Made by a program: the position numbers and the translations under genes | From: a virus | Virus record (IMG/VR): IMGVR_UViG_3300021085_002380 | Direction: 5' to 3' (one strand) | Length of the DNA stretch: 64,000 nucleotides | The notes under the pieces: model-generated | What the model was told of the DNA's origin: nothing | Database searches by the model: none | What the model saw: only the letters and a program-made list of their open reading frames with translations | In this document: piece by piece, positions 10,030 through 35,907 of the stretch | Layout: each line of letters begins with the position of its first letter | Numbering within the stretch: position 1 is the first letter of the stretch

Positions 10030-10048
10030 TTGGACTACATTATTTGGT
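9993..10048 (+). repeat. 28-bp tandem duplication (1 mismatch)
   Basis: ggaaattaattggcctacattatttggt followed by ggaaattaattggactacattatttggt. Confidence 0.9.
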
Positions 10049-10094
10049 TGACATTTGGGCCTGATCCAATTATAATCTAATATATACAGAATCA
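10048..10094 (+). promoter_or_regulatory. Consensus sigma70 promoter for primase, with downstream GAATCA
   Basis: TTGACA-N17-TATAAT; AGAATCA at 10088-10094. Confidence 0.8.
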
Positions 10095-10110
10095 GATTGA
10101 GCTTTTTATT

Positions 10111-11115
10111 ATGGTAGATTTTACAGAACTAAAGTATGCACAAATGCTATCCGGGCGTTTGGAAAACTTTAGAATACGTAACACAAATCCTTACAAAATT
10201 AACTTTCGGTGCCCAGTTTGTGGGGACTCCCAAAAGTCACGGTCTAAAAGCCGTGGTTGGCTCCTAGAGTCAAAGAACGTGTTCCATTATTACTGCCACA
10301 ACTGTGGAGCTAGCCAAGGCTTCTCGTTCTTTTTAAAGAGCATAGACCAATTATTGTATAATGATTATGTGGCGGAAAAGTTTATGGCTAATACTGCTGT
10401 AAAAGACTCGGAACCTGATGAGAATCAATTTAAGACAAAAGCTCCAGTCTTTAATAAGAAGAACCCGCTATTAAAAATTAAGAAGATAAGTCAACTTAAA
10501 TCTGACCATCCTATTAAAAGATATATTGAAAAACGTAAAATACCAACTAAGCATCATTATCGTTTATACTTTGCAAAAAAGTTTAAGACTTGGATTAATG
10601 AAATTATTCCTAATAAATTTGAAAACATAGGTAAAGATGAACCGCGGTTGGTAATACCTTTCTTAGATCAAAACGGCAATTGCTTTGGTGTATCTGCTCG
10701 TGGGTTTGATCCTAAAGGAATTAGATATATAACTATAATGTTTGAAGAAAGACCAAAAATATTTGGCCTTGATAAAGTTGACTTTTCACAACCATATTAT
10801 ATTGTCGAAGGCGCTATTGATAGTTTCTTTATTGAAAACGCTATTGCAATGAATGGTGCTGAAGGCAACGGCAACGCTGCAGGAGACAACGCAATATATG
10901 TCTTTGATGCCGAGCCAAGAAACAAAGAAATACACAAAAGAATGGAAAAGGTTATTAAAGCAGGCTACAAGGTTTGTATATGGCCATCCGACGTCCCAGG
11001 TAAAGATATTAACGAAATCTATTTAGCAGGACTTGATCCTGAAAAGTTAATTGAAGATAATACTTATCAAGGATTACAAGCAGAATTGAAACTCAGCGCA
11101 TGGCGCAAATCATAA
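10111..11115 (+). CDS. gp61: DNA primase (T4 gp61-like)
   Basis: NFRCPVCGDSQKSRSKSRG...CHNCG zinc finger; TOPRIM motifs VEGAIDS, FDAEPRN and KDINE. Confidence 0.93.
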   Translation: MVDFTELKYAQMLSGRLENFRIRNTNPYKINFRCPVCGDSQKSRSKSRGWLLESKNVFHYYCHNCGASQGFSFFLKSIDQLLYNDYVAEKFMANTAVKDSEPDENQFKTKAPVFNKKNPLLKIKKISQLKSDHPIKRYIEKRKIPTKHHYRLYFAKKFKTWINEIIPNKFENIGKDEPRLVIPFLDQNGNCFGVSARGFDPKGIRYITIMFEERPKIFGLDKVDFSQPYYIVEGAIDSFFIENAIAMNGAEGNGNAAGDNAIYVFDAEPRNKEIHKRMEKVIKAGYKVCIWPSDVPGKDINEIYLAGLDPEKLIEDNTYQGLQAELKLSAWRKS

Positions 11116-11124
11116 GGATACAAA

Positions 11125-11793
11125 ATGCAAGTTAGATTAATTGGTTATACTCAACCAGCTGAAGGAGAAATTATTGGGCTCGACGATGTGCAAGATATGA
11201 TTGCATATTGCGCAAGAGTGTCAAATCCTACTAATCAATTGAACCAAGAAACAGCGCCGAAGCTATTAAGTTACTTAGCAAAACATGCTCATTGGTCACC
11301 ATTTGAAATGGCTAATGCAACAATGGAAATTGAAACTACTCGTGATATTGCTCGCCAAATGTTACGACATCGCTCCTTTGCTTTTCAGGAGTTTAGTCAA
11401 CGATATGCTGACCCTGCGCTTATGGGTAATCAGTTTGTAACGCGTGAAGCACGTTTACAAGATACTAAAAACCGTCAAAATAGTATTGCTAACTCTGACG
11501 AACGTTTGCAGATGATGTGGGACTCAAAACAGGGTGAAGTTATTCGTGCGGCGGAAGATGCATACAAGTGGGCTATTGAAAATGGTATTGCTAAAGAGCA
11601 GGCTCGTGCGGTTTTGCCTGAAGGTAATACTATTAGCCGTTTGTATATGCAAGGCTCTATCCGATCTTGGATCCATTATATTGAGCTGCGTGCTTCAAAT
11701 GGAACACAACAAGAACACATGGATATTGCAGCTGAATGTGCAAAAGCCATATCCAAAATATTTCCGTTAATTGATACTTATGTTCAAAAATAA
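11125..11793 (+). CDS. thyX: Flavin-dependent thymidylate synthase
   Basis: HWSPFE, RHRSFAFQEFSQRY and AKEQARAVLP. Confidence 0.95.
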   Translation: MQVRLIGYTQPAEGEIIGLDDVQDMIAYCARVSNPTNQLNQETAPKLLSYLAKHAHWSPFEMANATMEIETTRDIARQMLRHRSFAFQEFSQRYADPALMGNQFVTREARLQDTKNRQNSIANSDERLQMMWDSKQGEVIRAAEDAYKWAIENGIAKEQARAVLPEGNTISRLYMQGSIRSWIHYIELRASNGTQQEHMDIAAECAKAISKIFPLIDTYVQK

Positions 11794-11886
11794 AAATAAA
11801 AAAGTTCAAATATCGCCCAAAAACGGAAACCTAAATGAATAAATATCCCTACAATTTGACATCTATAGTTAAAGAATATCCCTTAG

Positions 11887-11902
11887 CCACAATATATTGA
11901 TC
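11887..11902 (+). promoter_or_regulatory. Candidate NrdR box upstream of the RNR operon
   Basis: CCACAATATATTGATC matches the core of the NrdR consensus acaCwAtATaTwGtg; no clear second box. Confidence 0.45.
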
Positions 11903-11960
11903 CGATTAAGTCGGGAGGTATATCTTTGGCTTTATCACAAACACATAAGAAAGAGGACCG

Positions 11961-13244
11961 ATGATGCTACAATCAACTCCACCAGAAATTCTAAGACGAG
12001 TTAATTACGTTACTAAACGCGATGGTACTACTGAATCTTATGATGAGAATAAAATTAGTACTGCCGTATCTAAAGCTATGAAAACCGTTGGTATGCGAAG
12101 TAGAATGCTTCCTGGTGAAGTTGCGTTAGAAGTTACAGATTTGTTGAACCGAGATGATGAAGCAGACATTCAAGTTGATGTTGATGCCGTGCACCAAAAG
12201 GTAGAAAATGTAATTATGGATATGGGATTACACGATCTTGCTCGTGAATATATTTTATTCCGTTATAATAACCAACCAAACATTTTTCGTAAAAGAACAA
12301 GTTTAAAACCATACGAGTATCCACAGGTAGTTGAATTTACTGACGCTATTCGCCATTCGTATTGGGTACATACTGAGTTTAATTATTCCTCAGATATTCA
12401 AGATATGAAAGTACGTATGACACCCGAGGAAGTTGATATTGTAAAGAAAGCAATGTTGGCTATTTCTCAAATTGAAGTTGCGGTTAAAACGTTTTGGTCA
12501 AAAATCGGTGATAAGTTTCCAAAGCCAGAAGTACAGGCAGTTGGTGTAACCTTTGGCGAGTCTGAAGTACGTCACGCCGACGCTTATTCAAATCTTATTG
12601 AGATTATGGGACTTAACGAAGAGTTTGCAAAGATTGTAGAAGTACCTGCCATGAAAAAGCGTATTGCTTATCTTGAGCAGTCAATTGCTGCACCGGTTGA
12701 TGATAAAGATTATTTCCATAAAATTATTCTATTCTCTATGTTTGTTGAAAACGTATCACTGTTTAGTCAGTTCCTAATTATGATGGCATTTAATAAACAC
12801 AAGAATGTATTAAAAGGTATTTCCAACGCCGTAGAGGCAACATCAAAAGAAGAAGATATCCATGCTCGTTTCGGATTTGAGCTTGTAAACATTATCCGTG
12901 AAGAAAACCCAGAGTGGTTTGATAAAGAAAGTATTAACGAAGTGAATAGACTTTGCCGCGATGCCTTCAAGGCTGAGTCTGCTATCGTCGATTGGATCTA
13001 TGGTGAATCTGACCTAGACTTTTTGCCGAAAGCAACTGTTAAAGAATTCCTAAAACATCGTTTCAATCAATCATTAACAGCTATAGATATGAAGCCTTTA
13101 TATGAGGTAGATCAAGAGGCGGTAAAAAGTACCGACTGGTTCGTTGAAGAAATTTTGAGTACAAAGAATGTTGACTTCTTTGTTAAACGTAGTACAGCAT
13201 ATTCTAAAAAGACCAAAGCATTCACCGAAGACGATCTATTTTAA
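11961..13244 (+). CDS. nrdB: Ribonucleotide reductase beta subunit with N-terminal ATP-cone (class Id/NrdBi-like)
   Basis: VTKRDG...KISTAVSKA...VENVIM..AREYILFR ATP-cone; ferritin-like core with SQIEVAVKTFW, ESEVRHADAY, VENVSLFSQF and EEDIH. Confidence 0.9.
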   Translation: MMLQSTPPEILRRVNYVTKRDGTTESYDENKISTAVSKAMKTVGMRSRMLPGEVALEVTDLLNRDDEADIQVDVDAVHQKVENVIMDMGLHDLAREYILFRYNNQPNIFRKRTSLKPYEYPQVVEFTDAIRHSYWVHTEFNYSSDIQDMKVRMTPEEVDIVKKAMLAISQIEVAVKTFWSKIGDKFPKPEVQAVGVTFGESEVRHADAYSNLIEIMGLNEEFAKIVEVPAMKKRIAYLEQSIAAPVDDKDYFHKIILFSMFVENVSLFSQFLIMMAFNKHKNVLKGISNAVEATSKEEDIHARFGFELVNIIREENPEWFDKESINEVNRLCRDAFKAESAIVDWIYGESDLDFLPKATVKEFLKHRFNQSLTAIDMKPLYEVDQEAVKSTDWFVEEILSTKNVDFFVKRSTAYSKKTKAFTEDDLF

Positions 13245-13256
13245 TAAGGAAAAAAC

Positions 13257-14915
13257 ATGAAAGATTTTTATTGGTTAAACGAGGACTCTCGTACATTTTT
13301 GTCGCGCGGCTATCTTAGCGAAGGTGAAACCCCTGAAAGCCGTATCCGTGATATTGCAAACAAAGCAGAAGAATATTTAAACGAGCCAGGATTTGCGGAC
13401 AAGTTTTATGAGTATATGGCTCGTGGCTTTTATTCGTTAGCATCTCCTGTTTGGGCTAATTACGGTAAAGAACGAGGTTTACCTGTATCTTGCTTTGGTT
13501 CATACATTGATGATAGCATGCAAGCTATCTTGTTTGGTCATGCTGAAAACGGTATGCTAATGAAAAACGGTGGTGGTACGTCAGGTTACTTTGGTAATAT
13601 CCGTCATCGTGGCGCTCCTATTCGAGACTCAGGCGAGTCCTCAGGCTCAGTACACTTTATGCAAATGTATGATACACTTGCGTCTGTTGTATCACAAGGT
13701 TCTGTTCGCCGCGGTTTCTTTGCTGCATATCAAGACATTGAACATCCTGATGCTGATGAGTTTTTGGACATTGGTACAGAAGGCAATCCTATTCAAGGTC
13801 TAACAACTGGTATTACTGTTAGTGATAAATTCATTGAAGAAATGAAAGCAGGGGATCCTGAAAAGCGCCGCTTGTGGGCAAAGGTTCTACAACGTCGTTC
13901 TGAAGTTGGGTTTCCTTATATCCTATATTCCGATAATGTAAATAACGGAAGACCGCAAGTCTATAAAGACAAAGATATGAGAGTTTATGCTTCAAACATG
14001 TGTGCTGAAATTGCGTTACCATCCAGCCACGAAGAAACATTTACATGTGTACTTTCTTCTATTAACGTATTGCATTGGGATCAAATTAAAGATACTGACG
14101 CGATTGAAACAATGACAAAATTCCTTGATACTGTTTGTGAAGAATTTATTATTAAAACAGAAGGCCAAATCTATTTAAAACGAGCGCGTGACTTTGCTAT
14201 GAACCACCGCGCCCTTGGTGTTGGTATTCTTGGATGGCATTCGTTACTTCAATCAAAAATGATGGCCTTTGAAGGTTCAGCTGCGTCAAAATTGAATTTA
14301 GAAATTGCACAAACATTACGTGAAAGATCCCACGCGGCGTCTGCTGAGTTAGCAAAAACTTTAGGCGAGCCACCTTTACTAAAAGGTTATGGAATGCGTA
14401 ATACTACAACGATGGCAATTGCTCCTACTAAATCATCGAGCTTTATTCTTGGGCAAGTATCACAATCAATTGAGCCTGAGTTCAGCAACTGTTATGTTAA
14501 AGATCTGGCCAAAATGAAAGTTACAATCAAAAATCCATATCTACAAAAACTCCTTGAAGATAAAGGTGCAGATACCGTAGAAACGTGGGATAGTATTAAA
14601 GCAAGAGATGGATCTGTGCAACACCTTGTAGAATTGCTGGATGAAAATGAACGAGCCGTATTCAAAACGTTTTCAGAAATTAATCCAAACGCAATTATTG
14701 ACCAAGCCGCAATTCGTCAAGAATACATTGACCAATCGCAAAGTCTAAACCTAATGTTAGATCCTGATATGTCAGTTAAAGAAATCAATCAAATGTATCT
14801 ATATGCGTGGGAAATGGGTGTAAAGAGTTTGTACTACAGTTATTCAATGTCTGCAGCGCAATCACTTACTCGAAAGCGTGTAATGTTAGAAGGTTGTGCA
14901 GCCTGCGAAGCTTAA
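13257..14915 (+). CDS. nrdA: Ribonucleotide reductase alpha subunit (short, no ATP-cone)
   Basis: [38 protein letters not shown] and C-terminal CAACEA. Confidence 0.93.
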
Positions 14916-14916
14916 T

Positions 14917-16110
14917 ATGAAACATTTGCACTATTTTAAAAATACAGTCGATAGTTATAGAGAAGATGGTCGTTATAGAGTTTTTAATGATATCATAAGA
15001 GAACGTGGTAACTTTCCAAAAGCAATTTGGTATGGCAAATACGCTCCTAAGAATATTGTTAATTGGTGCTCAAACGACTATCTTGGTATGGGTCAAAACG
15101 AATATGTTATTGACGCTATGCACACGGCTTTAGACCAAACAGGATCAGGATCCGGCGGTACACGCAATATTGGCGGAACCTCGCAATACCATGTTACATT
15201 AGAAAGAGAACTTGCGTCGCTTCATAAAAAGGAGTCAGCACTTCTTTTCTCGTCCGCATATGTTGCAAACGAATGGGCTATTATTTCTTTAAGTAGAATT
15301 ATACCAAACATATGTTTTATTTCTGACAACAAAAATCATGCGTCTATTATTATGGGCGTTAAGCACAGCCGTGCTGATAAAATGATTTTTCATCATAACG
15401 ATATGGCAGATCTCGAGGAAGCATTAACTATTGCAACAGAAAGTGGACAAGTACCTTGTATACTATTTGAGTCTGTGTATTCTATGGATGGCGATGTTGC
15501 TCTTATTGAACAGATATTGGACTTAGCGGATAAATATAACGCAATTACGTATATTGACGAAGTACATGCCGTTGGTTTATACGGCGAACAAGGTGGAGGT
15601 TATTGCGAGCACCTTGGTTTAGAAGACAGGGTAGATATTATTAATGGTACACTTGGAAAAGCATTCGGAGTTCAAGGCGGGTATATTAGTGGGAATCGTA
15701 CTGTCATTGACGCTATTAGGTCCGTGGCTTCTGGGTTCATCTTTACAACAAGTATATCGCCCGCCGTGTGCGCCGGAGCAATTGCCTCAATCAAATTTCT
15801 CAAAGATCATACAGGCTTGCGATCCAAACATCAACAACGAGCAACAAAACTGAAACAATTGTTGAGCGAAGCTAATATACCAGTTCATGACTCGTGTTGC
15901 ACGCATATCGTTCCTGTAATGGTTAATGATGCGTTTAAGTGCAAAGACGCCAGTGATCGTTTGTTGAATGAGTATGGAATTTATATTCAAGCAATTAATT
16001 CGCCAACCGTTAATGCTGGTACTGAAAGATTACGAATTGCGCCAACGCCGTATCACAATGACGTGATGATGGTAGAGTTGGTAGAAGCATTGAAAGAAGT
16101 GCTTAAATGA
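14917..16110 (+). CDS. hemA: 5-aminolevulinate synthase (C4/Shemin pathway)
   Basis: [48 protein letters not shown] (PLP lysine) and GTERLRIAP. Confidence 0.92.
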
Positions 16111-16205
16111 ACAATAATATGTTAACAGTCAAACTGATGTTATTTCTATGCGTGTTTTTACACGTTGTAGTAATACCAGTATGGATGTGGAGTTTAGGAT
16201 TATGA
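16107..16205 (+). CDS. Small hydrophobic peptide (32 aa, not in ORF track)
   Basis: ATGA overlap with the hemA stop; [32 protein letters not shown]. Confidence 0.4.
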
Positions 16206-16255
16206 ATCAACTTGAGTCTGCATTCTTTGGAAAACGACTGTGGAAGGAAAATAAA

Positions 16256-16675
16256 ATGAGTAAGATTAAAAAAGCCTTTTGGTTTTGTCTAGGAATTATT
16301 TTAGTAGGAGTAGCGTATCTCGGCGTATTACTACCTGGTCTACCTTGGTCAACACCAATTCTTGGCGCAACGTTTTGTTTCGCTAAATCAAGTGATAGAT
16401 TGCATGCATGGATTATGAACCACCCAAGGTTTGGTCCATTTGTTAAAAACTGGTCAAAGTACCGTGTATATCCAACCGCCGCTAAATGGCTGATGGTTGC
16501 AGTTATGTCCACGTCTTTGGCATTTATGTATTTTGGTACAGGTAATGAAAAAGCAACGCTTTACTTGTTTATTACATTCGCATTAATTGTTACATGGGCA
16601 TGGCGTTATCCTGGCTCACAGGCTATTGCTGAAGATCGCATTGCTAAAGGCAAAAAGATCGGTTGGCTAAAGTAA
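16256..16675 (+). CDS. ybaN: YbaN/DUF454 family inner-membrane protein
   Basis: LGVLLPGLPWSTPILGATFCFAKSSDRLHAWIMNHPRFGPFV; ATG at 16256 follows AAGGA. Confidence 0.8.
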   Translation: MSKIKKAFWFCLGIILVGVAYLGVLLPGLPWSTPILGATFCFAKSSDRLHAWIMNHPRFGPFVKNWSKYRVYPTAAKWLMVAVMSTSLAFMYFGTGNEKATLYLFITFALIVTWAWRYPGSQAIAEDRIAKGKKIGWLK

Positions 16676-16717
16676 ATAAATAAACTTATATAATATGAAT
16701 ATGATGAAAGGTATATT

Positions 16718-17743
16718 ATGGCAAAACGTATTCTAATTACTGGTGGCGGTGGTTTTATTGCTCACCATTTAATTAATCAGGTACTCCTCCGAACAGACTG
16801 GGAAATTGTAACGCTTGATCGTTTAGATTATAGCGGTAATCTCAATCGCCTCCATGATTTACTTCAGGAACGAACTCCTGCTGAGCGTAAACGTGTACGA
16901 ACAATCTTCCACGACTTAAAGGCAGAAATCAACCCAATGCTCGAAGCAGACATTGGTCCTGTTGATATTATTGCTCACCTGGCAGCTGGTTCCCACGTAG
17001 ATCGTTCTATTGAGCGTCCTATGGAATTTGTTATGGATAACGTAGTGGGTACGGCTAATCTTTTAGATTATGGTCGTCGGCAAGACAATCTTGAAAGGTT
17101 CTTATACTTTTCAACAGACGAAGTATTTGGACCTGCTCCGGATGGAATTAAGTATGACGAATATGATCGTTATAATTGTACTAATCCATATTCAGCATCT
17201 AAGGCTGGAGCTGAGGAATTGGCTGTTGCATATCAAAATACTTATAATATGCCAATTTATATTACTCACACTATGAATGTGTTTGGCCAACGTCAACATC
17301 CTGAAAAGTTTATTCCTATGACTATTCGGAATGTAAGAGATGGCGGTACTGTTACAATTCATAGCGATGCAAGCAAAACAATACCAGGATCTCGTCATTA
17401 CATTCACGCTGAAGATGTAGCTGACGCAACAATGTTTTTGCTAGAACACAATCGTACTTTAGATATGTCAAATAATAGTGGTATTAAATGTCCTAAGTTT
17501 AACATCTGCGGAGCAACCGAGCTTAACAATTTAGAACTCGCAAATCTTATTGCTGACGCACAAGGAAAGGAACTTAAATATGAGTTTATGGATTTCCATT
17601 CTAGCCGTCCTGGCCATGATCTTCGTTATGCTCTTAGTGGTGATCGTATGGCGAATATGGGTTGGCGTCCGCAACCTGTTAGAGAAAGAATTGCTGAAGT
17701 GGTCCAGTGGACTTTAGATAACAGAAGGTGGCTTGACATATGA
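16718..17743 (+). CDS. rmlB: dTDP-glucose 4,6-dehydratase-like SDR
   Basis: ITGGGGFI, HLAAGSHVDRSI, STDEVFG, PYSASKA, QHPEKFIP and RPGHDLRYAL. Confidence 0.85.
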   Translation: MAKRILITGGGGFIAHHLINQVLLRTDWEIVTLDRLDYSGNLNRLHDLLQERTPAERKRVRTIFHDLKAEINPMLEADIGPVDIIAHLAAGSHVDRSIERPMEFVMDNVVGTANLLDYGRRQDNLERFLYFSTDEVFGPAPDGIKYDEYDRYNCTNPYSASKAGAEELAVAYQNTYNMPIYITHTMNVFGQRQHPEKFIPMTIRNVRDGGTVTIHSDASKTIPGSRHYIHAEDVADATMFLLEHNRTLDMSNNSGIKCPKFNICGATELNNLELANLIADAQGKELKYEFMDFHSSRPGHDLRYALSGDRMANMGWRPQPVRERIAEVVQWTLDNRRWLDI

Positions 17744-18315
17744 ACTTTCAAACAATTATAAACCAAACATACAATGAGTGGTCCGCTAAGCCCACTGATA
17801 TTAATGAGCATCTTCCGATTTTAAAAGACTATGCTGAACACTGTAAACACGTAACTGAAATGGGAGTTCGCCGTGGCGCGAGCTCTCGAGCATTCCTAAC
17901 TTGCGATGTAGTGTTGCGGTCATATGACATTTACGAAGAACCAAGTGTTACTGAATTATTTGAAATGGCTCGTAAAGCAGGTAAGGATGTTGACTATATT
18001 ATCAAAGATGTACTGCAAGTTAAAATTGAACCGACTGATATGCTGTTTATTGATACGTGGCATTCACAGGCTCAACTAAGACAAGAACTTGCTATGCATG
18101 GTAATGTACCAACAAGATTCTTAGCATTTCATGATACTCATACATATGGTACTGTTGACGAAAGTATGGAGTGGGCGTCAAATCCAAACCGTAAAGCAAT
18201 CAAAGGTCAAGGATTGCTTCCAGCCATTATTGAATTTATTATGGCAAATCCTCATTGGAAATTTAGAGACCATAGAACAAACAATAACGGACTGACAGTA
18301 TTAGAAAGATCATAA
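17740..18315 (+). CDS. Class I SAM methyltransferase (Methyltransf_24-like)
   Basis: DINEHLP, EMGVRRGAS, DMLFIDTWH, AFHDT and NNNGLTVL. Confidence 0.7.
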   Translation: MNFQTIINQTYNEWSAKPTDINEHLPILKDYAEHCKHVTEMGVRRGASSRAFLTCDVVLRSYDIYEEPSVTELFEMARKAGKDVDYIIKDVLQVKIEPTDMLFIDTWHSQAQLRQELAMHGNVPTRFLAFHDTHTYGTVDESMEWASNPNRKAIKGQGLLPAIIEFIMANPHWKFRDHRTNNNGLTVLERS

Positions 18316-20129: not shown

Positions 20130-20172
20130 TTGACATACTCAATAGAATCAGTTATATTAGTAACTATAAATA
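20130..20172 (+). promoter_or_regulatory. sigma70 promoter with GAATCA in the spacer, plus a TATAAATA late promoter
   Basis: TTGACA(20130)-N17-TATATT; AGAATCAG in the spacer; TATAAATA at 20165-20172. Confidence 0.75.
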
Positions 20173-25105: not shown

Positions 25106-25140
25106 TTGACATTTTCTTTCAACTATGGTAGATTGATTCT
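25106..25140 (+). promoter_or_regulatory. sigma70 early promoter with TGATTC abutting the -10
   Basis: TTGACA-N17-TAGATT-GATTCT. Confidence 0.75.
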
Positions 25141-25908: not shown

Positions 25909-25910
25909 CA

Positions 25911-25918: not shown

Positions 25919-25942
25919 ATCCTATTACTATGGGGTTATTCT

Positions 25943-26377
25943 ATGTGGCATTACAAAGGTGAGGAGTTTACCTCAGAGATGATTGGTGATTATATTGGCT
26001 TTGTTTATATAATCACAGATAACTCTAACGATAAAAAATATATCGGTAAAAAGATTTTCAAATCAAAAAGAAGACTTAAACCTTTGAAGGGCAAGACCCG
26101 CCGAAGAACTAAGATAGTAGAGTCTGATTGGCAAAAGTACTATGGCTCGTCAGAAGAAGTCAAACTTATGGTAGAAGAAAAAGGCCCTGATAACTTTTAC
26201 CGAGAAATTATACACCTTTGCGATAAGAAAGGTGAAATGGGCTATCTCGAACTTTACGAACAAATTACTCGTCACGCATTGCTAGACGATTCATACTACA
26301 ACGGCATATGCCAAGCTAAAATCCATAGAAGTCATGTTAAAGGATTAAAATGGCTCATGGACGATAGTAATGGTTGA
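25943..26377 (+). CDS. GIY-YIG endonuclease (T4 endonuclease II-like)
   Basis: GFVYIIT...KKYIGKK, ESDWQKYYGSS, FYREII and YYN. Confidence 0.75.
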   Translation: MWHYKGEEFTSEMIGDYIGFVYIITDNSNDKKYIGKKIFKSKRRLKPLKGKTRRRTKIVESDWQKYYGSSEEVKLMVEEKGPDNFYREIIHLCDKKGEMGYLELYEQITRHALLDDSYYNGICQAKIHRSHVKGLKWLMDDSNG

Positions 26378-26414
26378 CATTTCTATTAAAATAGATTATA
26401 TTAATCTAGAATCA
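26374..26414 (+). promoter_or_regulatory. sigma70 promoter with downstream GAATCA
   Basis: TTGACA-N17-TATATT; AGAATCA at 26408-26414. Confidence 0.75.
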
Positions 26415-26430
26415 GTTAATGGAGAATGTT

Positions 26431-26661
26431 ATGATTATCAAAAGAAAAAGCGCCTTTTCAGGAATCGTTCGCTCAAAGGATATCCCTGTTGATCCTAAAG
26501 ACTTCGCTCAGTTTGAAGCTGGGTATGGAAGTATGGAAGACTTACTCCCTTATTTGTCAGACGAAGATCGTGAATTCATTCTTTCAGGTATGACTCCTCA
26601 AGAATGGAAAAACGCGTTCTCTGAAGAAATTATGAATATCGTTGAGGACCAATTTGCATGA
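26431..26661 (+). CDS. Conserved phage hypothetical protein
   Basis: GGAG RBS; PYLSDEDREFILSGMTPQEW motif. Confidence 0.6.
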   Translation: MIIKRKSAFSGIVRSKDIPVDPKDFAQFEAGYGSMEDLLPYLSDEDREFILSGMTPQEWKNAFSEEIMNIVEDQFA

Positions 26662-27513: not shown

Positions 27514-27535
27514 CATATATAAAGTGAGATAGATT

Positions 27536-28752: not shown

Positions 28753-28755
28753 GTT

Positions 28756-29118
28756 ATGTCTAATGTTATAGAATTTCCTATAAAGGATAAAGTTAACGCG
28801 TCTGCAAAAACACGCGAAGAACTTCAGCAAACTATTGTTGACTATAAAGAAGAAATAGCTGAAGAAGCGTCTGAATATTTGTGGAGAAATCTCCTTGGTG
28901 AAATGTCACGGATGGGATGTGATTTTGATAAAGAAATCAAAGTGCATTTTCCATCCATGGTATTAGTACTTGAATCAATTAGGTCCTTACACCTACAAGC
29001 TCATGGTGTCCACCATCCACTGCAAGATTTTGCAACAGAATTTGTTGATGTTGAAGAAATAGAAAATTTTGAGGCAGAAGCTAAAAAAATGGTTGACATT
29101 GACGAAGAGTTAGATTAG
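28756..29118 (+). CDS. Conserved hypothetical protein
   Basis: Starts MSNVIEFP; contains ESIRSL...HPLQ. Confidence 0.6.
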   Translation: MSNVIEFPIKDKVNASAKTREELQQTIVDYKEEIAEEASEYLWRNLLGEMSRMGCDFDKEIKVHFPSMVLVLESIRSLHLQAHGVHHPLQDFATEFVDVEEIENFEAEAKKMVDIDEELD

Positions 29119-29121
29119 AAT
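29093..29121 (+). promoter_or_regulatory. sigma70 promoter for rnh (no GANTC)
   Basis: TTGACA-N17-TAGAAT. Confidence 0.6.
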
Positions 29122-29158
29122 AGTAAGTATTAGATAAAATTGAAACAGAGAAAATAAA

Positions 29159-30019
29159 ATGGCAATTCTAGTAGATTACAACCAAGTTATCCTTGCTTCG
29201 CTATTCGCAAGCATCGGTAACCATCATAATGTGGACATTGACGAAAATCTTATCCGTCATATGTTCCTAAATTCAATCCGGTCTAACCGTAAAAAGTTTA
29301 CCGAACAATATGGAGAAATCGTAATATGTGCTGATGGCAAAAATACATGGCGTCGTGAGCTATATCCTTATTACAAAGCTAATCGTAAAAAGTCTCGTGA
29401 TGAGTCTGAACTTGATTGGACTCAGCTATTTGGTATTATGAATACCATCCGAGATGAGCTTAAGGAATTCTTTCCATACAAAGTTATTCATATGGACCAT
29501 CTTGAGGCTGATGATATCATTGGTACCATCATCCATGAAAACGGTGCTATCTTAAACGGCGGTGCAGAACCTTTCTTGGTTCTATCCGGTGATAAAGATT
29601 ACATCCAATTACATACGTATGCTAATGTGGATCAGTTTGACCCAGTTCGTAAACGTTGGATCCGTAATGACAATCCTGACCAATATTTGGTTGAGCACGT
29701 CTTAAAAGGTGACACTGGTGATGGTGTTCCGAATATTCTTTCACCAGACAATTGTTTAGCTGTTGGCCAACGCCAAAAACCTATGACCAAAAAACGCCTT
29801 GAGCAATTCCGCAATGGCACGGATGGTATGGATGAAGAAACATTACGACGCTATCACCGTAATAAAACCATGATTGATTTGTCTCAAATTCCGGCAAATT
29901 ACCAAACAGCAATTCTTGAAGAGTACAGCATTGACAAAGAAGTTGGTCGTTCAGAACTCTTTAACTTTTTTGTTAATCGCAAACTCAAAAACCTAATTTC
30001 AGACATACAGGATTTTTAA
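29159..30019 (+). CDS. rnh: T4 RNase H (5'-3' exonuclease)
   Basis: WRR..YPYYKANRK, EADDIIG, SGDKDY.QL and KGDTGDGVPN. Confidence 0.93.
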   Translation: MAILVDYNQVILASLFASIGNHHNVDIDENLIRHMFLNSIRSNRKKFTEQYGEIVICADGKNTWRRELYPYYKANRKKSRDESELDWTQLFGIMNTIRDELKEFFPYKVIHMDHLEADDIIGTIIHENGAILNGGAEPFLVLSGDKDYIQLHTYANVDQFDPVRKRWIRNDNPDQYLVEHVLKGDTGDGVPNILSPDNCLAVGQRQKPMTKKRLEQFRNGTDGMDEETLRRYHRNKTMIDLSQIPANYQTAILEEYSIDKEVGRSELFNFFVNRKLKNLISDIQDF

Positions 30020-30460
30020 ATGGCAGTTAGAAGATCAATTTCAGAAATCATAAATAAAGCAATAGAAATACCAGTTAAAAAAGATAAAGCAGCGTGGCTT
30101 CAGGAAAACGAATCCGCTCCGCTAAAAACTATCCTCAAATATTGGTTTGACGAATCTATTGAGTTTTTGATTCCTGATACACCACCACCTTGGAAAAAGA
30201 ACGAATACGAAGACGAAGCTAAAAGTTTGTTATACCATGAAGCACGTCGACTTAAGATCTTTGTCAAAGGTGGAGGGTATGATAATCTTAACCAAATCAA
30301 GCGTGAAAGTTTATTCATTAGCTTGTTAGAAGATGTTGATAATGATGACGCTGAAATGCTATGCAAAATGATTACTAGAAAATCGCCAAAAGGATTGTCC
30401 TTAAAGACAGTCATGACGGCATTTCCTGACTTAATTGAAATTAAAGAAACAGTATCATAG
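30020..30460 (+). CDS. Conserved T4-like hypothetical protein
   Basis: Follows rnh; L..E.RRL..F.KGG...KRESLFI.LLE pattern. Confidence 0.65.
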   Translation: MAVRRSISEIINKAIEIPVKKDKAAWLQENESAPLKTILKYWFDESIEFLIPDTPPPWKKNEYEDEAKSLLYHEARRLKIFVKGGGYDNLNQIKRESLFISLLEDVDNDDAEMLCKMITRKSPKGLSLKTVMTAFPDLIEIKETVS

Positions 30461-30469
30461 GAAAGACTA

Positions 30470-30643
30470 ATGGCTAAAAGTTTTAAAGAGTTCCGCGAAG
30501 ATTGGGAACACGACGAATGGGGTCACAACGAAGAACGGAGCGTACGCAGTAAGGAAAAGCGTATGAAAAACCGTCGTGATAAAAAGAAACTGAAACGGCA
30601 AGAAAGAAATTCCCATCTTGATACTGAAGAACAAAAAAGGTAA
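30470..30643 (+). CDS. Small basic protein with CTS-like start (57 aa, not in ORF track)
   Basis: AGGA RBS; MAKSFKEFREDW...KRMKNRRDKKKLKR. Confidence 0.55.
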   Translation: MAKSFKEFREDWEHDEWGHNEERSVRSKEKRMKNRRDKKKLKRQERNSHLDTEEQKR

Positions 30644-30662
30644 TTCTTTTTCATATTAACTA

Positions 30663-30721
30663 TTGACATTTGAGTACAAATAGGTTATATTGATTCTATA
30701 AGGTAAAACAAAAGGAATCAA
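30663..30721 (+). promoter_or_regulatory. sigma70 early promoter/leader cassette with TGATTC
   Basis: TTGACA-N17-TATATT-GATTCT; 37 nt identical to 34208-34244. Confidence 0.8.
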
Positions 30722-30725
30722 TCTT

Positions 30726-31118
30726 ATGGGTACTTCATCAATGATCGCAAACTACAACGAAGACGGCACAGTTACAGCAACATATTGCCATTACGATGGT
30801 TATCTTGCTTACAACGGCCGTCTTCTTTTTGAAGCCTATAACACACCTGAGAAGGCTAAAGCAGTAGCAAATGCTGGTTATATCTCAGGTCTGAAAGAAG
30901 ACCTACAAACATCTTTAGATGAGTCGGTCCATTCAAACCAATCCCCTGTTACATACAATTCAGTTGAAGACTTCCTGGCAAACGGCCGTGAGTTTGCTTG
31001 TGCTGATTATCTTTACCTGTTTGACGGAGACGCATGGTTCTATGCTTCAACGCCTGCCCAGGAAGGTACATGGTTAATGGAAGAAGTTGAAATGAATTTA
31101 AATGAGGTAGCTGCATAA
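30726..31118 (+). CDS. Conserved phage early protein
   Basis: MGT.S.I...YCHYDGY...G motif. Confidence 0.7.
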   Translation: MGTSSMIANYNEDGTVTATYCHYDGYLAYNGRLLFEAYNTPEKAKAVANAGYISGLKEDLQTSLDESVHSNQSPVTYNSVEDFLANGREFACADYLYLFDGDAWFYASTPAQEGTWLMEEVEMNLNEVAA

Positions 31119-31124
31119 TAACTA

Positions 31125-31153
31125 TTGACATTTGCTCGCGAATCAGATAGATT
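31125..31153 (+). promoter_or_regulatory. sigma70 early promoter with CGAATCA in the spacer
   Basis: TTGACA-N17-TAGATT; the spacer site reads TGATTCG on the - strand. Confidence 0.75.
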
Positions 31154-31179
31154 GTATATATCAACAAAGGAAAATGAAA

Positions 31180-31452
31180 ATGAAAAAGTTAAACCAAACA
31201 ACACTGAAAACAATCCGCAACGCTGACAAGGATACACTTGACGCAATTATCGCGGAAGTCAAAAACCGTCAACGCCAAATGCAGCGTGAAATCGGAAATG
31301 CGTTCAACGTCGGAGATAAAGTTTGGTTTGACGCAAATCGTCGTGGTCGCATTGAAGGTATGATTTCAAAAATCAACCAAAAGACTATCGTCGTTAAAAC
31401 ACCTACCGTAACTTGGAAAGTTACACCATCACTATTAAAGAAAGTAGCCTAA
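31180..31452 (+). CDS. Small early protein with SH3/KOW-like C-terminus
   Basis: FNVGDKVWF...G.I.KINQKT..V...WKV.PSLL; start re-placed after the AAGGA RBS. Confidence 0.6.
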   Translation: MKKLNQTTLKTIRNADKDTLDAIIAEVKNRQRQMQREIGNAFNVGDKVWFDANRRGRIEGMISKINQKTIVVKTPTVTWKVTPSLLKKVA

Positions 31453-31453
31453 T

Positions 31454-32065
31454 ATGTATAACCGTTCTAATGAAACAATTGCTGATAAAGTCATCCTAGT
31501 TGACGTTGACGGTGTACTCCTTGACTGGGAGTATGCCTTCACAGGTTGGATGCAAAAGCATAACTATGAAATCCAAGAAGGTATGGAAGATCAATATGAT
31601 ATGACCCTTCGTTATGGACTCAAAGTTGAAGATAAAGAACGGATTGTTCGTATGTTCAACGAGTCTGCTTGGATCCGTAAACTTCCACCTTTGCGTGATG
31701 CAATCAAATATGTTCGGAAACTCCATGAAGAACATGGATATGTGTTCCGAGTAATCAGTTCATTGAGTGACTGCTATTACTCTCAACATCTTCGGACTAA
31801 AAACTTGATTGAAATGTTTGGTCCTAGTGTCTTTGAAAACTTTGTCTATCTTGACACAGGTGCCGATAAAGATGATGCTCTTGAGCAGTATCGTGGAACC
31901 GGTTGCTTTTGGGTTGAAGATAAACCACAGAATGCCGACCTTGGCTCTGAGCTTGGTTTGGAAGCAATCCTAGTTAATCACCATCATAATGAAAATGTTG
32001 AGATTAACCCTGCAACCACTCGTGTAAATAATTGGAAAGAAATTTATGAATTAATCGCTGGATAA
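31454..32065 (+). CDS. HAD-family 5'(3')-deoxyribonucleotidase-like (T4 gp30.2-like)
   Basis: ILVDVDGVLLDW and WVEDKPQNA. Confidence 0.75.
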   Translation: MYNRSNETIADKVILVDVDGVLLDWEYAFTGWMQKHNYEIQEGMEDQYDMTLRYGLKVEDKERIVRMFNESAWIRKLPPLRDAIKYVRKLHEEHGYVFRVISSLSDCYYSQHLRTKNLIEMFGPSVFENFVYLDTGADKDDALEQYRGTGCFWVEDKPQNADLGSELGLEAILVNHHHNENVEINPATTRVNNWKEIYELIAG

Positions 32066-32076
32066 CTATTTTGAAT

Positions 32077-32084
32077 TATAAATA
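32077..32084 (+). promoter_or_regulatory. T4-type late promoter
   Basis: Exact intergenic TATAAATA. Confidence 0.6.
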
Positions 32085-32134
32085 GTTTTAACAATGAAAT
32101 AGATTATGAAATAATTTGAAATAGAGGAGACTTC

Positions 32135-32371
32135 ATGCCGACTTATACGTTTGAAGATACAAACACTGGTGAAATATTTGACAAAGTTATGAAGATTTCA
32201 GATAGAGATCTTTTCCTCGAAGAAAACCCTAATATAACTCAAAGAATTGGACGGCCACCGTCAATAGGTGATGCCGTGCGTCTCGGGCGATTGAAGCCTG
32301 ACGACGGTTTTCGTGATGTGCTTCGTAATGTTCAACATCATCATAAAAAGGATAACATAAACACTTGGTAA
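32135..32371 (+). CDS. FmdB-like small protein
   Basis: Starts MPTYTF...TGE; GAGGAG RBS; precedes phoH. Confidence 0.6.
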   Translation: MPTYTFEDTNTGEIFDKVMKISDRDLFLEENPNITQRIGRPPSIGDAVRLGRLKPDDGFRDVLRNVQHHHKKDNINTW

Positions 32372-32406
32372 ACCGTTGTGTTATTCGGATATAACAAGGA
32401 GGTTTC

Positions 32407-33156
32407 ATGGCTAGACAGCGAAGACTATCCAGGAAAGAACGACGTAGACAAGAACGAGAAGAGGAAAACATGATGCGTGTTTTAAACACCAAGTTTTCAA
32501 TGCGGGCAGTTAAACCGCTAACACCATCTCAATCTGATTTATTTAATTCTTACGAAAGAGGGTATAATCTCGCAGCCATAGGAACAGCAGGTACAGGAAA
32601 AACAATGTGTGCTACATACTTGGCACTCAATGATGTACTACAGAAAGGAGAGTATGAAAAGGTCGTCATAATTAGATCTGCAGTTCAAACACGCGAGCAA
32701 GGCTTTATGCCTGGGTCAAAGGCCCAAAAGGAGGCGGTATTCGAAGGTCCGTATACCGACATCGTTAACGATCTATTTAGCAGAGGAGATGCTTATCAAG
32801 TTTTAAAACAAAAAGGTATGATTGAATTTATGAGTTCATCGTTTGTAAGAGGACTCACGTTTGATAATTCAGTCATTATAGTAGACGAATGTCAATCTAT
32901 GACGTACCATGAACTTGATACTATTATCACACGTGTAGGAGAGTCCTCAAAGATTATCTTCTGCGGTGATACAAAGCAAGACGATCTTCAACAATCTCGA
33001 AACAGAGCAGATATCTCAGGTCTTTACGATTTTGTAAAGGTTCTAAATGCTATCCCATCTTTTGGTGTGGTAAGATTTGGAGTTGAAGATATTGTTCGTT
33101 CAGGATTAGTTAAAGAATATATAATTGCAAAAGAAAAACTTTTAGAGGCTGCATAA
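32407..33156 (+). CDS. phoH: PhoH-family ATPase
   Basis: GTAGTGKT, RSAV...GFMPG, FVRGLTF, IVDECQ, TRVG, GDTKQ.D and DIVRSGLV. Confidence 0.93.
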   Translation: MARQRRLSRKERRRQEREEENMMRVLNTKFSMRAVKPLTPSQSDLFNSYERGYNLAAIGTAGTGKTMCATYLALNDVLQKGEYEKVVIIRSAVQTREQGFMPGSKAQKEAVFEGPYTDIVNDLFSRGDAYQVLKQKGMIEFMSSSFVRGLTFDNSVIIVDECQSMTYHELDTIITRVGESSKIIFCGDTKQDDLQQSRNRADISGLYDFVKVLNAIPSFGVVRFGVEDIVRSGLVKEYIIAKEKLLEAA

Positions 33157-33509
33157 TGGCGTTAGCTGCACGCGGAGACACAATAGAAACAGTAGATACA
33201 GTTCATCCAGCATCAGGAGATGCGGTGGCAAACGATGGATCTAATTGTGACGTAAATTCAATAAACACTTCAACAGACGCGTGTAGCGGAAAAGTTTTTG
33301 CACAAGGTATCGGCGTTGTCAGATTTGGCGATGCCGTTACCAATCATATACAAGGCGGTGTTTGTACTAATCATGCAATCGCGCCTACTCTTAACACAGG
33401 TTCATCTAAGGTGAAAATTGAAGGAAAGAAAGCAGGGCGCAAAGGTGATACATATTCTTGCTCTGCTGAAATCAAAACAGGAGCGCCTAAAGTAGATATA
33501 GGCGGCTAA
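33156..33509 (+). CDS. PAAR-like baseplate spike tip protein (gp5.4-like)
   Basis: LAARGD, VVRFGD..H, GSSKV.IEGKKAGRKGD and TGAPKVDIG repeats. Confidence 0.7.
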   Translation: MALAARGDTIETVDTVHPASGDAVANDGSNCDVNSINTSTDACSGKVFAQGIGVVRFGDAVTNHIQGGVCTNHAIAPTLNTGSSKVKIEGKKAGRKGDTYSCSAEIKTGAPKVDIGG

Positions 33510-33517
33510 TTTATATT

Positions 33518-34189
33518 ATGTTTAATCATGTAGAGCACGGCGTGGTGCTTCCCAAATTAACACGTGAAACAACTACAACTGGTAGAAAATACTTTACACC
33601 AGAAGGAAACGCATATCCGTCAATCACAACGGTTCTTGGCGTATTAAATAAAGAAGGAATTCTTGCGTGGCGTCAAAGAGTTGGCGAAGCGGAAGCAAAT
33701 AGAATATCACAGCAAGCCGCCACTCGTGGTACGGCGGTACACAAACTTGCAGAAGATTATTTAGATAATAAAGAGGATTGGAACAAAGGTGCAATGCCTT
33801 CAAATCTCCAATCCTTTAATGATTTAAAATCTATACTTGACCAACGTTTAAACAATGTTTGGTTTCAAGAAGAGTTCTTATACTCTGATAGACTAAAATG
33901 CGCAGGACAGGTTGACTGCATCGCTGAGTTTGACGGTCAACTTTCTATTGTTGATTTTAAAACATCAAGGAAACCAAAGAAAGAGGAATGGATTACTAAT
34001 TACTTTATTCAAGCATCTTTTTACGCCGCTGCATTTTATGAAAGAACCTCCATACCAATTAAACAAGGCGTGATCTTGATAACCGTAGACGGTTCAGAAC
34101 CACAAGTCTTTAAAGTTAACACTTACGATTATTTAGAACATTTTATTGCAGTACGAAAAAAGTACAAAGAAATGAAAGAACGCCATTGA
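33518..34189 (+). CDS. PD-(D/E)XK exonuclease
   Basis: YPSITTVL, RGTAVH, AGQVDCIAE...IVDFKTS and YFIQ..Y. Confidence 0.85.
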   Translation: MFNHVEHGVVLPKLTRETTTTGRKYFTPEGNAYPSITTVLGVLNKEGILAWRQRVGEAEANRISQQAATRGTAVHKLAEDYLDNKEDWNKGAMPSNLQSFNDLKSILDQRLNNVWFQEEFLYSDRLKCAGQVDCIAEFDGQLSIVDFKTSRKPKKEEWITNYFIQASFYAAAFYERTSIPIKQGVILITVDGSEPQVFKVNTYDYLEHFIAVRKKYKEMKERH

Positions 34190-34244
34190 CATTCATTATG
34201 AAATGGTTTATATTGATTCTATAAGGTAAAACAAAAGGAATCAA
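34186..34244 (+). promoter_or_regulatory. sigma70 early promoter/leader cassette with TGATTC
   Basis: TTGACA-N17-TATATT-GATTCT; 37 nt identical to 30685-30721. Confidence 0.8.
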
Positions 34245-34245
34245 A

Positions 34246-34545
34246 ATGACAAAGTTCAACAAAACAGACTTCAGCTACCACGGTGGATATCTTATGTACA
34301 CAGGTTCGTATGAAGGCCAACCAGTATATGAAGACAGTGAAAGAGTTCACCCTTCAAATGTTGGTCGTGGCATTGACCTTTTCATTGCTCGGTTCAAGTA
34401 CCGTGGAAGTCCTATCAAAATGGGAGCTTTCAAAAAGTTCCTTATCAACAACTTCACCGTTGAAGAATATGCTGCAGCTCGTAAGGTTGAAGGAATTGAA
34501 AGTTCACCTCTTAAAATCTTAGAATCGAAAGGATTTGCTGTATGA
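34246..34545 (+). CDS. Conserved phage early protein
   Basis: F.YHGGYL.Y...FIARFKY...FLINNFTVEEY. Confidence 0.65.
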   Translation: MTKFNKTDFSYHGGYLMYTGSYEGQPVYEDSERVHPSNVGRGIDLFIARFKYRGSPIKMGAFKKFLINNFTVEEYAAARKVEGIESSPLKILESKGFAV

Positions 34546-35111
34546 ATATATTTGTATTATCAGAAGAGCCGCGAGAAGCGGCTCAGATGGTCTGCGACAA
34601 ACACTGTAGTAAAATGATTATTGAGTCTGGACAAATGCTGTCCACTGCACATCGTATGCTTGACGGATATATGGAAAAGCGTCCTTCAAAGTCAGGTAAG
34701 GTCATGGTTAAGTACTTTGTCCATCCTAATAATAATCTTGAAGAAACGCTTTACAAAGCAGTACATCACGGACATCCATGCACAGTATGGTCTATGAAAT
34801 CAAAGGCCAATTATCTATGGCATTATGAGCACTTTCTCGGGCTTATAGATGAGTTTCTGGTACGCTACAAAAAGCTTCATATGACTGCAAACAAGTTGAC
34901 TGAAGTTCTTGCTAATCCGCCGGAAAATATACCAGACATAGGTCTAACCGAATTTCCACAAGCAATGAATAACTTTCCGTTATGCAAGGTTGAAGGCAAT
35001 CCAGTTGCAGCATATCGTAAATATTATCATATGACTAAAGACTTTGCTGTATGGAATAAAGGGCGTTCTGCTCCTGATTGGTGGCAAGGTTTTCAAGGAT
35101 ATCCAGCTTGA
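34542..35111 (+). CDS. Pyrimidine-dimer DNA glycosylase family protein
   Basis: MNIFVL...A....CDKH..KM..E..QMLSTAH, HPCTVW and V.AYR.YY. Confidence 0.75.
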   Translation: MNIFVLSEEPREAAQMVCDKHCSKMIIESGQMLSTAHRMLDGYMEKRPSKSGKVMVKYFVHPNNNLEETLYKAVHHGHPCTVWSMKSKANYLWHYEHFLGLIDEFLVRYKKLHMTANKLTEVLANPPENIPDIGLTEFPQAMNNFPLCKVEGNPVAAYRKYYHMTKDFAVWNKGRSAPDWWQGFQGYPA

Positions 35112-35440
35112 GATACATAATAATTGACCAAGAGATGGGTGTGTTTCTCGGCACTCATCGAATGCCACTTCAAGGAGCTGGCGGTCCTATAAACATTATG
35201 AGAATATTTTCAAAAAACGATATGTTTGGTATCAGCAGAGCATATTCTTTTGATACTAAAAAAGATGCGTTTAAATATATGCAAGCATTCTTAATAGAGG
35301 ACTATCCTCTTTGTAAAATTGTGGAAGTAGAATCAAGTGGTCAATATGTTGATGTTATAGATTTAATTAAGTCAGGATACACTCAATACACACATGACAT
35401 GGTTGACGCGTTGCCGATGGACAACGAAACTATCCACTAA
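35108..35440 (+). CDS. Hypothetical protein (start uncertain)
   Basis: ORF fills the gap; a TTG at 35108 follows AAGGA. Confidence 0.5.
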   Translation: MRYIIIDQEMGVFLGTHRMPLQGAGGPINIMRIFSKNDMFGISRAYSFDTKKDAFKYMQAFLIEDYPLCKIVEVESSGQYVDVIDLIKSGYTQYTHDMVDALPMDNETIH

Positions 35441-35468
35441 TTTTTTTCAATTTAATTTCATTTTATTG

Positions 35469-35497
35469 TTGACATTTCGTTTAGAATCAGTTATATT
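35469..35497 (+). promoter_or_regulatory. sigma70 early promoter with GAATCA in the spacer
   Basis: TTGACA-N17-TATATT; AGAATCAG in the spacer. Confidence 0.8.
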
Positions 35498-35527
35498 ATT
35501 AATATAACAAATGAAAAGGAATCAGTC

Positions 35528-35875
35528 ATGACAAGTCAAACTCAACTTTTTTGGAAAGAAACACCACTTGCAAACGTAGCTGCGTTAGTTGCGAAATTTC
35601 GTGGTTATGCACAAGATGAAGAAGCAATTGAAAACGACATGGCTGATATGTATAACGAAGACGCTGACGATTTTCACAAAGCAATCGTTTTGTTTCGTCA
35701 GTCAGATTGCGAAGGTTTAGCTGAACATATTAATCGTATGGATACATCTCCTCGTGAAGACTTGGTTGAAGCTTTTTGGTTTGACTGCGGCAATGAATTC
35801 GTTGAAAAAAACCTTGGGTTTGAAATGAGTCAATCTTGGATTGATTTTCAAAATGAATTAAAAGTTGCAGTTTAA
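35528..35875 (+). CDS. Hypothetical acidic early protein
   Basis: Has its own promoter and RBS. Confidence 0.65.
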   Translation: MTSQTQLFWKETPLANVAALVAKFRGYAQDEEAIENDMADMYNEDADDFHKAIVLFRQSDCEGLAEHINRMDTSPREDLVEAFWFDCGNEFVEKNLGFEMSQSWIDFQNELKVAV

Positions 35876-35878
35876 CTA

Positions 35879-35907
35879 TTGACATTATGATGGAATCAGT
35901 ATATACT
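35879..35907 (+). promoter_or_regulatory. sigma70 early promoter with GAATCA in the spacer
   Basis: TTGACA-N17-TATACT; GGAATCAG in the spacer. Confidence 0.8.

Follow-up and report, generated by a model that had tools for sequence, protein, structure and literature searches.

Which factor reads a short word, TGATTC, that recurs at fixed places in the early promoters of an uncultured phage? The question is raised by a 64,000-nt stretch of viral DNA (IMG/VR record IMGVR_UViG_3300021085_002380, hereafter the window), from a T4-like marine phage. Its promoters of the form TTGACA-N17-TAnnnT often carry TGATTC, or its complement GAATCA, in the spacer between the -35 and -10 hexamers or shortly downstream. 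A sequence-only reading of the window had proposed that such sites may place phage early transcription under the CcrM/GcrA control of an alphaproteobacterial host. We find that the element is real, positioned and under selection. We give an even chance to what is, on sequence grounds, its best single explanation, i.e., that it is a GcrA box read by the host sigma70 cofactor.

The window contains 15 exact matches to TTGACA-N17-TAnnnT, against 1.37 +/- 1.17 in shuffled sequences, and these promoters are strand-consistent and upstream of genes. They include all 11 promoters listed by the sequence-only reading, each with an exact match at its -35, and four others (8115 and 22906 on the + strand, 55885 and 58571 on the - strand). 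We assigned the TTGACA promoters to the early class because a T4-type late motif, TATAAATA, precedes the capsid, sheath and other structural genes. The nine promoters said to contain TGATTC or GAATCA do so at the places claimed, while no site is found at 9405, 29093, 8115 and 22906 (promoters are named by the first base of the -35, from which offsets are also counted). GAATCAG stands at offset 15 in promoters 20130, 31125 and 35469, and at offset 14 in 35879. TGATTCT begins on the final T of the -10 in 25106, 30663 and 34186, and AGAATCAG lies 12 nt past the -10 at 10048 and 6 nt past it at 26374. The earlier estimate of a few percent by chance per promoter was accurate: given the word frequency of the window itself, the probability of finding either word in the 55 nt after a -35 is 0.031. 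For nine of 13 promoters this amounts to P ~2e-11, or ~3e-5 if five cassettes are counted as independent.

The same promoter class is present in two complete relatives from IMG/VR, G002 (221 kb, ~75% DNA identity) and G003 (201 kb, ~68%). Among the 98 strict promoters of the window, G002 and G003, 27 have GAATC exactly 15 nt from the start of the -35 (0.05 expected). These 27 form a single cassette family with the consensus aAtTAaCta-TTGACA-TTt..TtTA-GAATCAG-T-TATATT and a leader ending in AAAGGA. The heptamer is missing from the other 71, which frequently have a TGn extended -10. When the -10 is numbered -12 to -7 and the start site is assumed to lie 7 nt after it, the spacer AGAATCA spans -21 to -15, with its centre at -18, and the G at -14 is also invariant. 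The commonest form of the element is AGAATCAG at -21 to -14, the alternative being a copy just past the -10, near +2, +8 or +18. GAWTC starts cluster at offsets 15, 29-30 (about -4), 34-36 (+2), 41 (+8) and 50-54 (+17 to +19, beside the ribosome-binding site), and the copies downstream of the -10 occur in both orientations.

The enrichment of GANTC in promoters, which the sequence-only reading had suggested checking, is clear: 8-12 sites per kb in promoter zones versus 2-3 per kb elsewhere in the three genomes. Describing the site as GANTC was nevertheless too broad. The window promoters contain neither GAGTC nor GACTC, and 61 of the 64 GANTC sites in the strict promoter zones of the three genomes are TGATTC(T/C/G), with one only being GAGTC or GACTC. 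The 12 promoter-zone sites of the window comprise seven TGATTCT, one TGATTCG and four TGATTCC, the last of which departs from the GcrA consensus in its final base and is mostly found beside ribosome-binding sites.

To follow the element in orthologous promoters we used the DUF932 gene (35939-36895), for which about 200 IMG/VR relatives provided 57 distinct upstream regions. All 57 have a TTGACA-type promoter, and about 20 retain GAATC at offset 14 or 15 in a spacer that otherwise varies highly. The box is present in the window, G002, G003 and L137, which differ at the nine other bases of the spacer. L137 shares 55% protein identity and no DNA similarity with the window, a distance comparable to that of the cultured phages Melnitz or phiM12, and all six of its promoter sites are YGATTCG. 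At two L137 loci (682-745 and 12669-12735) a perfect TGATTCG also lies 2 nt before the start codon, besides the spacer box. Other relatives show forms decayed by one base (GAATAGA, GAACCGG). On these comparisons the box is kept as well as the hexamers, without being universal. Could the sites nonetheless be functionless, as hitch-hikers in recently duplicated cassettes or by-products of the AAAGGAATCA ribosome-binding context? Two cassettes of the window, 30663 and 34186, are indeed near-duplicates, and several downstream copies lie inside AAAGGAATCA beside a start codon. We still consider this highly improbable. The box has been kept at orthologous promoters over 55-80% protein identity while the rest of the spacer was randomised, a pooled set that includes loci chosen by the box pattern holds 62 different upstream spacer 9-mers with the same box, and the enrichment at an exact offset is far beyond chance.

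A selected element may still act through the polymerase itself. The box might be an intrinsic feature of the core promoter, reflecting a preference of the holoenzyme for a certain spacer or extended -10 and spread by cassette recombination with no extra factor. Whole cassettes do share conserved flanks (aAtTAaCta upstream, TTt..TtTA in the spacer, and the AAAGGA leader). Of the box-less promoters in these genomes, some have related spacers, e.g., AAATAGAT and AAATGGTT, and others combine a TGn extended -10 with a G that is again at -14. The decayed GAATAGA and GAACCGG stand in otherwise intact promoters. The promoters with the spacer box (class A) have A at -15 and G at -14, and are therefore not of the extended -10 type (TGn, with T at -15 and G at -14); another promoter class of G002 does have TGTGn. 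We find this explanation unlikely, since it accounts neither for the copies of the word past the -10, in either orientation and at several distances, nor for the exact GcrA consensus. Nor was a precedent found in candidate hosts: TTGAC-N8-10-GANTC-N3-5-TANNNT had 4 matches in 10 Rhodobacterales genomes versus 11 in the control, with a pattern that is possibly too strict.

The consensus in question is that of Caulobacter GcrA, whose motif is TGATTCG and, more broadly, YGAKTCK (Haakonsen 2015, PMC4647560). The sites of its regulon form a narrow group near -20 and a broad one between +2 and +30, few of them falling around the -10 (Haakonsen 2015, PMC4647560). A later study described major-groove contacts to all seven bases and peaks at -20, -30, +8 and +18 (Wu 2018, PMC5887438). 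Among the CcrM-methylated GcrA promoters of Caulobacter, PcsM has its box at -20 and PmipZ has boxes at +4 and +12 (PMC4647560, PMC5887438, PMC9976885). The promoter of the solved GcrA-RNA polymerase complex reads TTGACA-CCCGGGC-GAATC-CCTGC-TATAAT on the non-template strand (Wu 2023, PMC9976885). The phage promoters read TTGACA-N9-GAATC-N3-TAnnnT (N3 being AGN), versus TTGACA-N7-GAATC-N5-TATAAT in the complex, and therefore present the word on the same strand, 2 bp nearer the -10. Like GcrA-dependent promoters, they combine sigma70-type -35 and -10 hexamers with GANTC in a YGAKTCK context. When set against the published positions (-20 +/- 1, -30 +/- 2 and +5 to +30), the spacer boxes are centred at -18 and the downstream copies near +2, +8 and +18. 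The resemblance to the promoters of Caulobacter crescentus thus covers a sigma70 core with a single asymmetric TGATTC(G/T), placed on the same strand of the spacer or within the first ~20 transcribed bases, and the presence of two boxes in some promoters. The phage promoters differ in lying in AT-rich DNA, in their near-perfect E. coli-like hexamers, in an extra cluster at about -4, and in using the W-centred form only.

The host clue in the window is a gene for a GapR-like DNA-binding protein of the nucleoid (38189..38527, + strand; PF10073, 1e-31). It has an N-terminal extension of ~38 residues, is 72% identical and syntenic in G002, and is absent from G003. Its nearest chromosomal homologues (up to 74% identity, the value for Cognatishimia GapR) are all from Rhodobacterales, with Rhizobiales next. 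A maximum-likelihood tree places the proteins of the window and of G002 as a pair inside the Rhodobacterales clade, apart from Rhizobiales, with a support of 97/100. The family occurred in one of 14 control genomes, that of Caulobacter, and in 154 of 50,697 phage records. Nearly all of the latter are phages of Alphaproteobacteria, the best matches being roseophages and the main hosts Rhizobium, Rhodobacter, Ruegeria, Agrobacterium and Caulobacter. The nesting of the phage GapR within Rhodobacterales, and the near confinement of such genes to alphaproteobacterial phages, support the alphaproteobacterial host suggested by the sequence-only reading. The host is probably a member of this class, with marine, roseobacter-type Rhodobacterales the likeliest candidates. 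One caveat is that T4-like phages in general may carry a GapR-like gene anyway, as T4 DsbA has been reported as a remote GapR homologue (PMC7824862). The 74% identity to roseobacter genes nevertheless indicates a recent exchange, although one short gene is slender evidence for a host. GapR is a host clue and not the reader of the box, because G003 has the box without GapR. No host signal came from the cell-wall hydrolase and DUF932 proteins, whose closest relatives in culture infect alpha-, beta- and gammaproteobacteria. A contig of a metagenome-assembled genome (L012), considered as a possible binned phage, is bacterial, has 51% GC and matches by its GapR gene alone.

In the candidate clade, GcrA is encoded by all 10 Rhodobacterales genomes that hold the nearest GapR genes (~1e-46). 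The DNA-binding domains of Cognatishimia and Caulobacter GcrA align without gaps and are identical at all listed contact residues (M1, W3, W15, S20-S22, T32-N34, I37-K39, H41 and R42). The proposal of host CcrM/GcrA control therefore stands in part: the word, its strand, its position to within 2 bp and the presence of GcrA in the candidate clade all agree with it, while the genome-wide signal concerns GAWTC and not GANTC.

This last point is one of several that weigh against a GcrA box. GAWTC is the lowest of 32 comparable palindrome classes, with an observed-to-expected ratio of 0.63 (window, L201-L212 of G002 and L213-L223 of G003). Compared with synonymous-codon shuffles, the coding regions have GAWTC at 0.52-0.57 (z -10 to -14) and are enriched in GASTC at 1.3-1.5; the promoter word is the least depleted GAWTC context. 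An effect limited to W is predicted by neither CcrM nor GcrA. One idea is that GAWTC avoidance reflects a GAWTC-specific host restriction, or that a modified central cytosine hides GASTC from readers of GANTC. The promoter sites are W-centred only, although GcrA also likes TGAGTCG. The spacer box misses the published -20 +/- 1 by 1 bp, the cluster at about -4 also falls outside the published ranges and sits next to the -10, where Caulobacter promoters show almost no sites, and the invariant G at -14 falls outside the GcrA word.

The enzymes and the distribution of the element raise further difficulties. The sequence-only reading had allowed for a phage-encoded GcrA or CcrM. This is unlikely, as we found no gcrA, CcrM-type or Dam-type family in 67 early and payload open reading frames (ORFs) of the window, the structural ORFs of the - strand having been partly scanned, and no GcrA, CcrM-type or Dam-type methylase anywhere in G002 or G003. 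With no phage methylase, methylation would depend on the host enzyme, which is cell-cycle limited in Caulobacter. G002 and G003 also carry a divergent thymidylate-synthase-like gene; the phage DNA may be hypermodified, and bulky groups on two or three base pairs of the box (at its cytosines) could keep out CcrM as well as a reader of the major groove. Methylation is the weakest link of the earlier idea. Furthermore, no such promoter class was found in the cultured alphaproteobacterial phages phiM12, HTVC008M, Cr30, Atu_ph07, ORM_20 and DSS3-P1. The promoters of phiM12 and HTVC008M have other spacer motifs, this promoter type is not at all in excess in Cr30, Atu_ph07 or ORM_20, and the temperate roseophage DSS3-P1 has GANTC near TTGACA promoters in a different layout. 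Finally, many relatives with 76-82% protein identity have, in the place of the box, a small palindrome with co-varying arms, as does Melnitz. Well kept in some relatives, replaced in many and decayed in others, the box behaves as an exchangeable modulatory element.

Such replacement suggests another reader, i.e., a phage-encoded or virion-injected DNA-binding protein for which the box would be an operator that boosts early promoters or later shuts them, its likeness to the GcrA box being coincidental. Conserved spacer modules differ from one related T4-like phage to another, that of Melnitz and of many close relatives being a palindrome, and several G002 promoters have sites on either side of the -10 (offsets 15 and 30), a classic repressor layout. 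One would more naturally expect a reader adapted to hypermodified DNA to come from the phage itself, and the invariance extends through the G at -14, beyond the GcrA word. Yet the 7-mer is the GcrA consensus in all its variants (T or G in last position, Y in first position in L137), and it occupies the same strand and almost the same place as in the solved GcrA complex. A single asymmetric word, in both orientations downstream, is more in keeping with a tethered monomer than with a dimeric repressor, and no candidate protein was found. We therefore doubt the operator, to which we would grant perhaps one chance in five.

Under the preferred reading, a GcrA box, the early promoters would depend on host sigma70, and one class of them would be exchangeable cassettes with a predicted box. 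This box would read AGAATCA on the non-template strand and TGATTC(T/G) on the template strand, its centre falling at about -18, between the -35 and the -10; other promoters have the same word just past the -10 or within the first 20 transcribed bases. Host GcrA would ride on domain 2 of sigma70, and its tethered DNA-binding domain would dock on the box, so that polymerase binds more and forms more open complexes. The phage genome, once injected, would then compete well for host polymerase. We infer the identity of the host, the binding of GcrA, any reliance on CcrM methylation and the sign of the effect. A link between alphaproteobacterial phages and the GcrA circuit is known from the phiCbK-like Caulobacter phages (Gill 2012, PMC3556154). 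Those phages encode a GcrA homologue, whereas here the proposed engagement is through a cis element in promoters, with no gcrA in the ORFs scanned or in the complete relatives.

Methylophilales phage Melnitz (MZ577097), which infects a betaproteobacterial host of the OM43 group, served as a negative control: none of its promoters, the orthologous one included, has a box. It resembles the window in having the orthologous DUF932 gene behind a TTGAC-N17/18-TATAAT promoter with a conserved spacer module, and differs in that this module is a palindrome, TGTT..AACA, without GANTC. The same kind of palindrome, with 5-bp co-varying arms (TCGTTctcAAACGA, ATCATcttaaATGAT), is a second exchangeable spacer module of this orthologous promoter, common to Melnitz and to relatives of the window. 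It occurs at ~1440-1500 in L270, L238, L280, L258 and others, upstream of the match there, and at 30-60 and 133-160 in L314. A different, 160-kb phage (G004, IMGVR_UViG_3300009512_000010, locus L120) has -10 boxes of the GCTATAAT type, in alphaproteobacterial style, and five of its 27 strict promoters have GAATC in the spacer, at offsets that vary (6, 11, 13 and 14).

T4-type phages likewise have many strong sigma70-type promoters before small early genes in a variable region. Their mobile early promoter cassettes, the PeSL elements of Arbiol, Comeau and Krisch 2010, reportedly join a promoter to a stem-loop. The cassettes described here also seem to be repeated and exchanged between loci, but no adjoining stem-loop or terminator was found (17 hairpins versus 11.9 expected, none next to a cassette). 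We know of no description of a conserved spacer heptamer in T4 early promoters. T4 MotA/AsiA middle promoters, in which a MotA box at -30 takes the place of the -35, were rejected as a model, as the spacing is wrong and the -35 TTGACA is intact in all promoters; a MotA-box-like AATGCTTTA occurs in three G002 spacers, and a search for the AsiA family in G002 and G003, made without a positive control, gave no match. Likeness to IHF, CtrA or Irr half-sites, compared by eye, yielded no full match and was dropped.

The window has 38% GC and is organised in two parts. Genes for ribonucleotide reductase, primase, RNase H, ThyX and PhoH, together with many small ORFs, occupy the + strand before 38.6 kb, and those for the T4-type major head protein, portal, sheath and large terminase lie on the - strand from 38.6 kb onward. 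A near-identity DNA search of the window against the phage collection gave no match. The closest cultured capsids are those of the Sinorhizobium phages phiN3/phiM12 (68%), OM43 phage Melnitz (65%) and Pelagibacter phage HTVC008M (63%). An affinity to phages of Firmicutes, suggested by the search with the ribonucleotide reductase protein, was dropped as a horizontal signal, the capsid, portal, sheath and terminase being T4-like. Between the convergent GapR and capsid genes lies a hairpin with an 8-bp stem (38566-38587), terminator-like for both, with a T run only in the - strand reading (the capsid transcript).

Four promoters of the + strand are of class A. The first (20130..20158) has its -35 at 20130-20135, the box AGAATCA at 20144-20150, the G at 20151 and the -10 TATATT at 20153-20158. 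The late motif TATAAATA follows at 20165, 7 nt 3' of the promoter (region 20130-20172, +), and the gene downstream is a cell-wall hydrolase-like ORF. Because a class-A promoter is followed by a late motif, this gene may be expressed both early and late. The second (31125..31153) has the box CGAATCA at 31139-31145 and the -10 TAGATT. Its template strand reads TGATTCG, the full GcrA consensus, and the gene downstream (31174-31452) matched no family above threshold. In the third (35469..35525), the box AGAATCA at 35483-35489 is followed by a -10 TATATT ending at 35497 and by a second GAATCAG (35519-35525) that adjoins the ribosome-binding site of gene 35528-35875. The fourth (35879..35907), with the box GGAATCA at 35892-35898, one base nearer the -35, drives the DUF932 gene.

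The remaining promoters described one by one are also on the + strand. Promoter 25106..25140 lacks a spacer box and has TGATTCT at 25134-25140, starting on the final base of the -10 (about -7 to -1). At the orthologous promoter of G002 (185909) the word is inverted, with AGAATC in place of GATTCT on the same six positions. Promoters 30663..30720 and 34186..34243 both have TGATTCT abutting the -10 (30691-30697 and 34214-34220) and GAATCA beside the ribosome-binding site (30715-30720 for gene 30726-31118; 34238-34243 for gene 34246-34545). In the spacer of 30663, AAATAGG takes the place of the class-A GAATCAG. Their leaders (30692-30725 and 34215-34245) are almost identical (gattctataaggtaaaacaaaaggaatcaa) ahead of unrelated ORFs, which points to a duplicated promoter-leader cassette. 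The primase gene (10111-11115) has its early promoter at 10048..10095, with AGAATCAG at 10088-10095 (centre near +8), and gene 26419-26661 has its own at 26374..26415, with AGAATCAG at 26408-26415 (centre near +2). Two sigma70-type promoters have no box: 29093..29121, upstream of the RNase H gene (29159-30019), and 9405..9433, which has a TGn-type extended -10. Directly 3' of the latter, a GGGG...CCCC hairpin with a T run (9434-9465, +) suggests a very short transcript or an attenuator.

Roseobacters are major players in marine carbon and sulphur cycling. If GcrA reads the boxes, phage takeover in these bacteria would be tied to DNA methylation and to the stage of the host cell cycle. This would be the first case of phage early promoters carrying the cis element of a host cell-cycle cofactor; our literature search returned no paper on GcrA and phage early promoters, and no title on GcrA, GANTC and phages that describes it. 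The box would also allow the host of an abundant uncultured clade of phages, with ~200 IMG/VR relatives, to be recognised from sequence alone. A bolder version, which we judge rather unlikely, is that a widespread marine T4-like clade wires its immediate-early promoters to GcrA, early transcription being set by the GANTC methylation of the injected DNA and by the host cell cycle, and fading as replication dilutes the methyl marks. If true, early genes would be shut off in a replication-coupled manner without a phage regulator. Should the reader prove to be a protein of the phage, the box still marks out a regulon of about 15-20 early genes in each genome.

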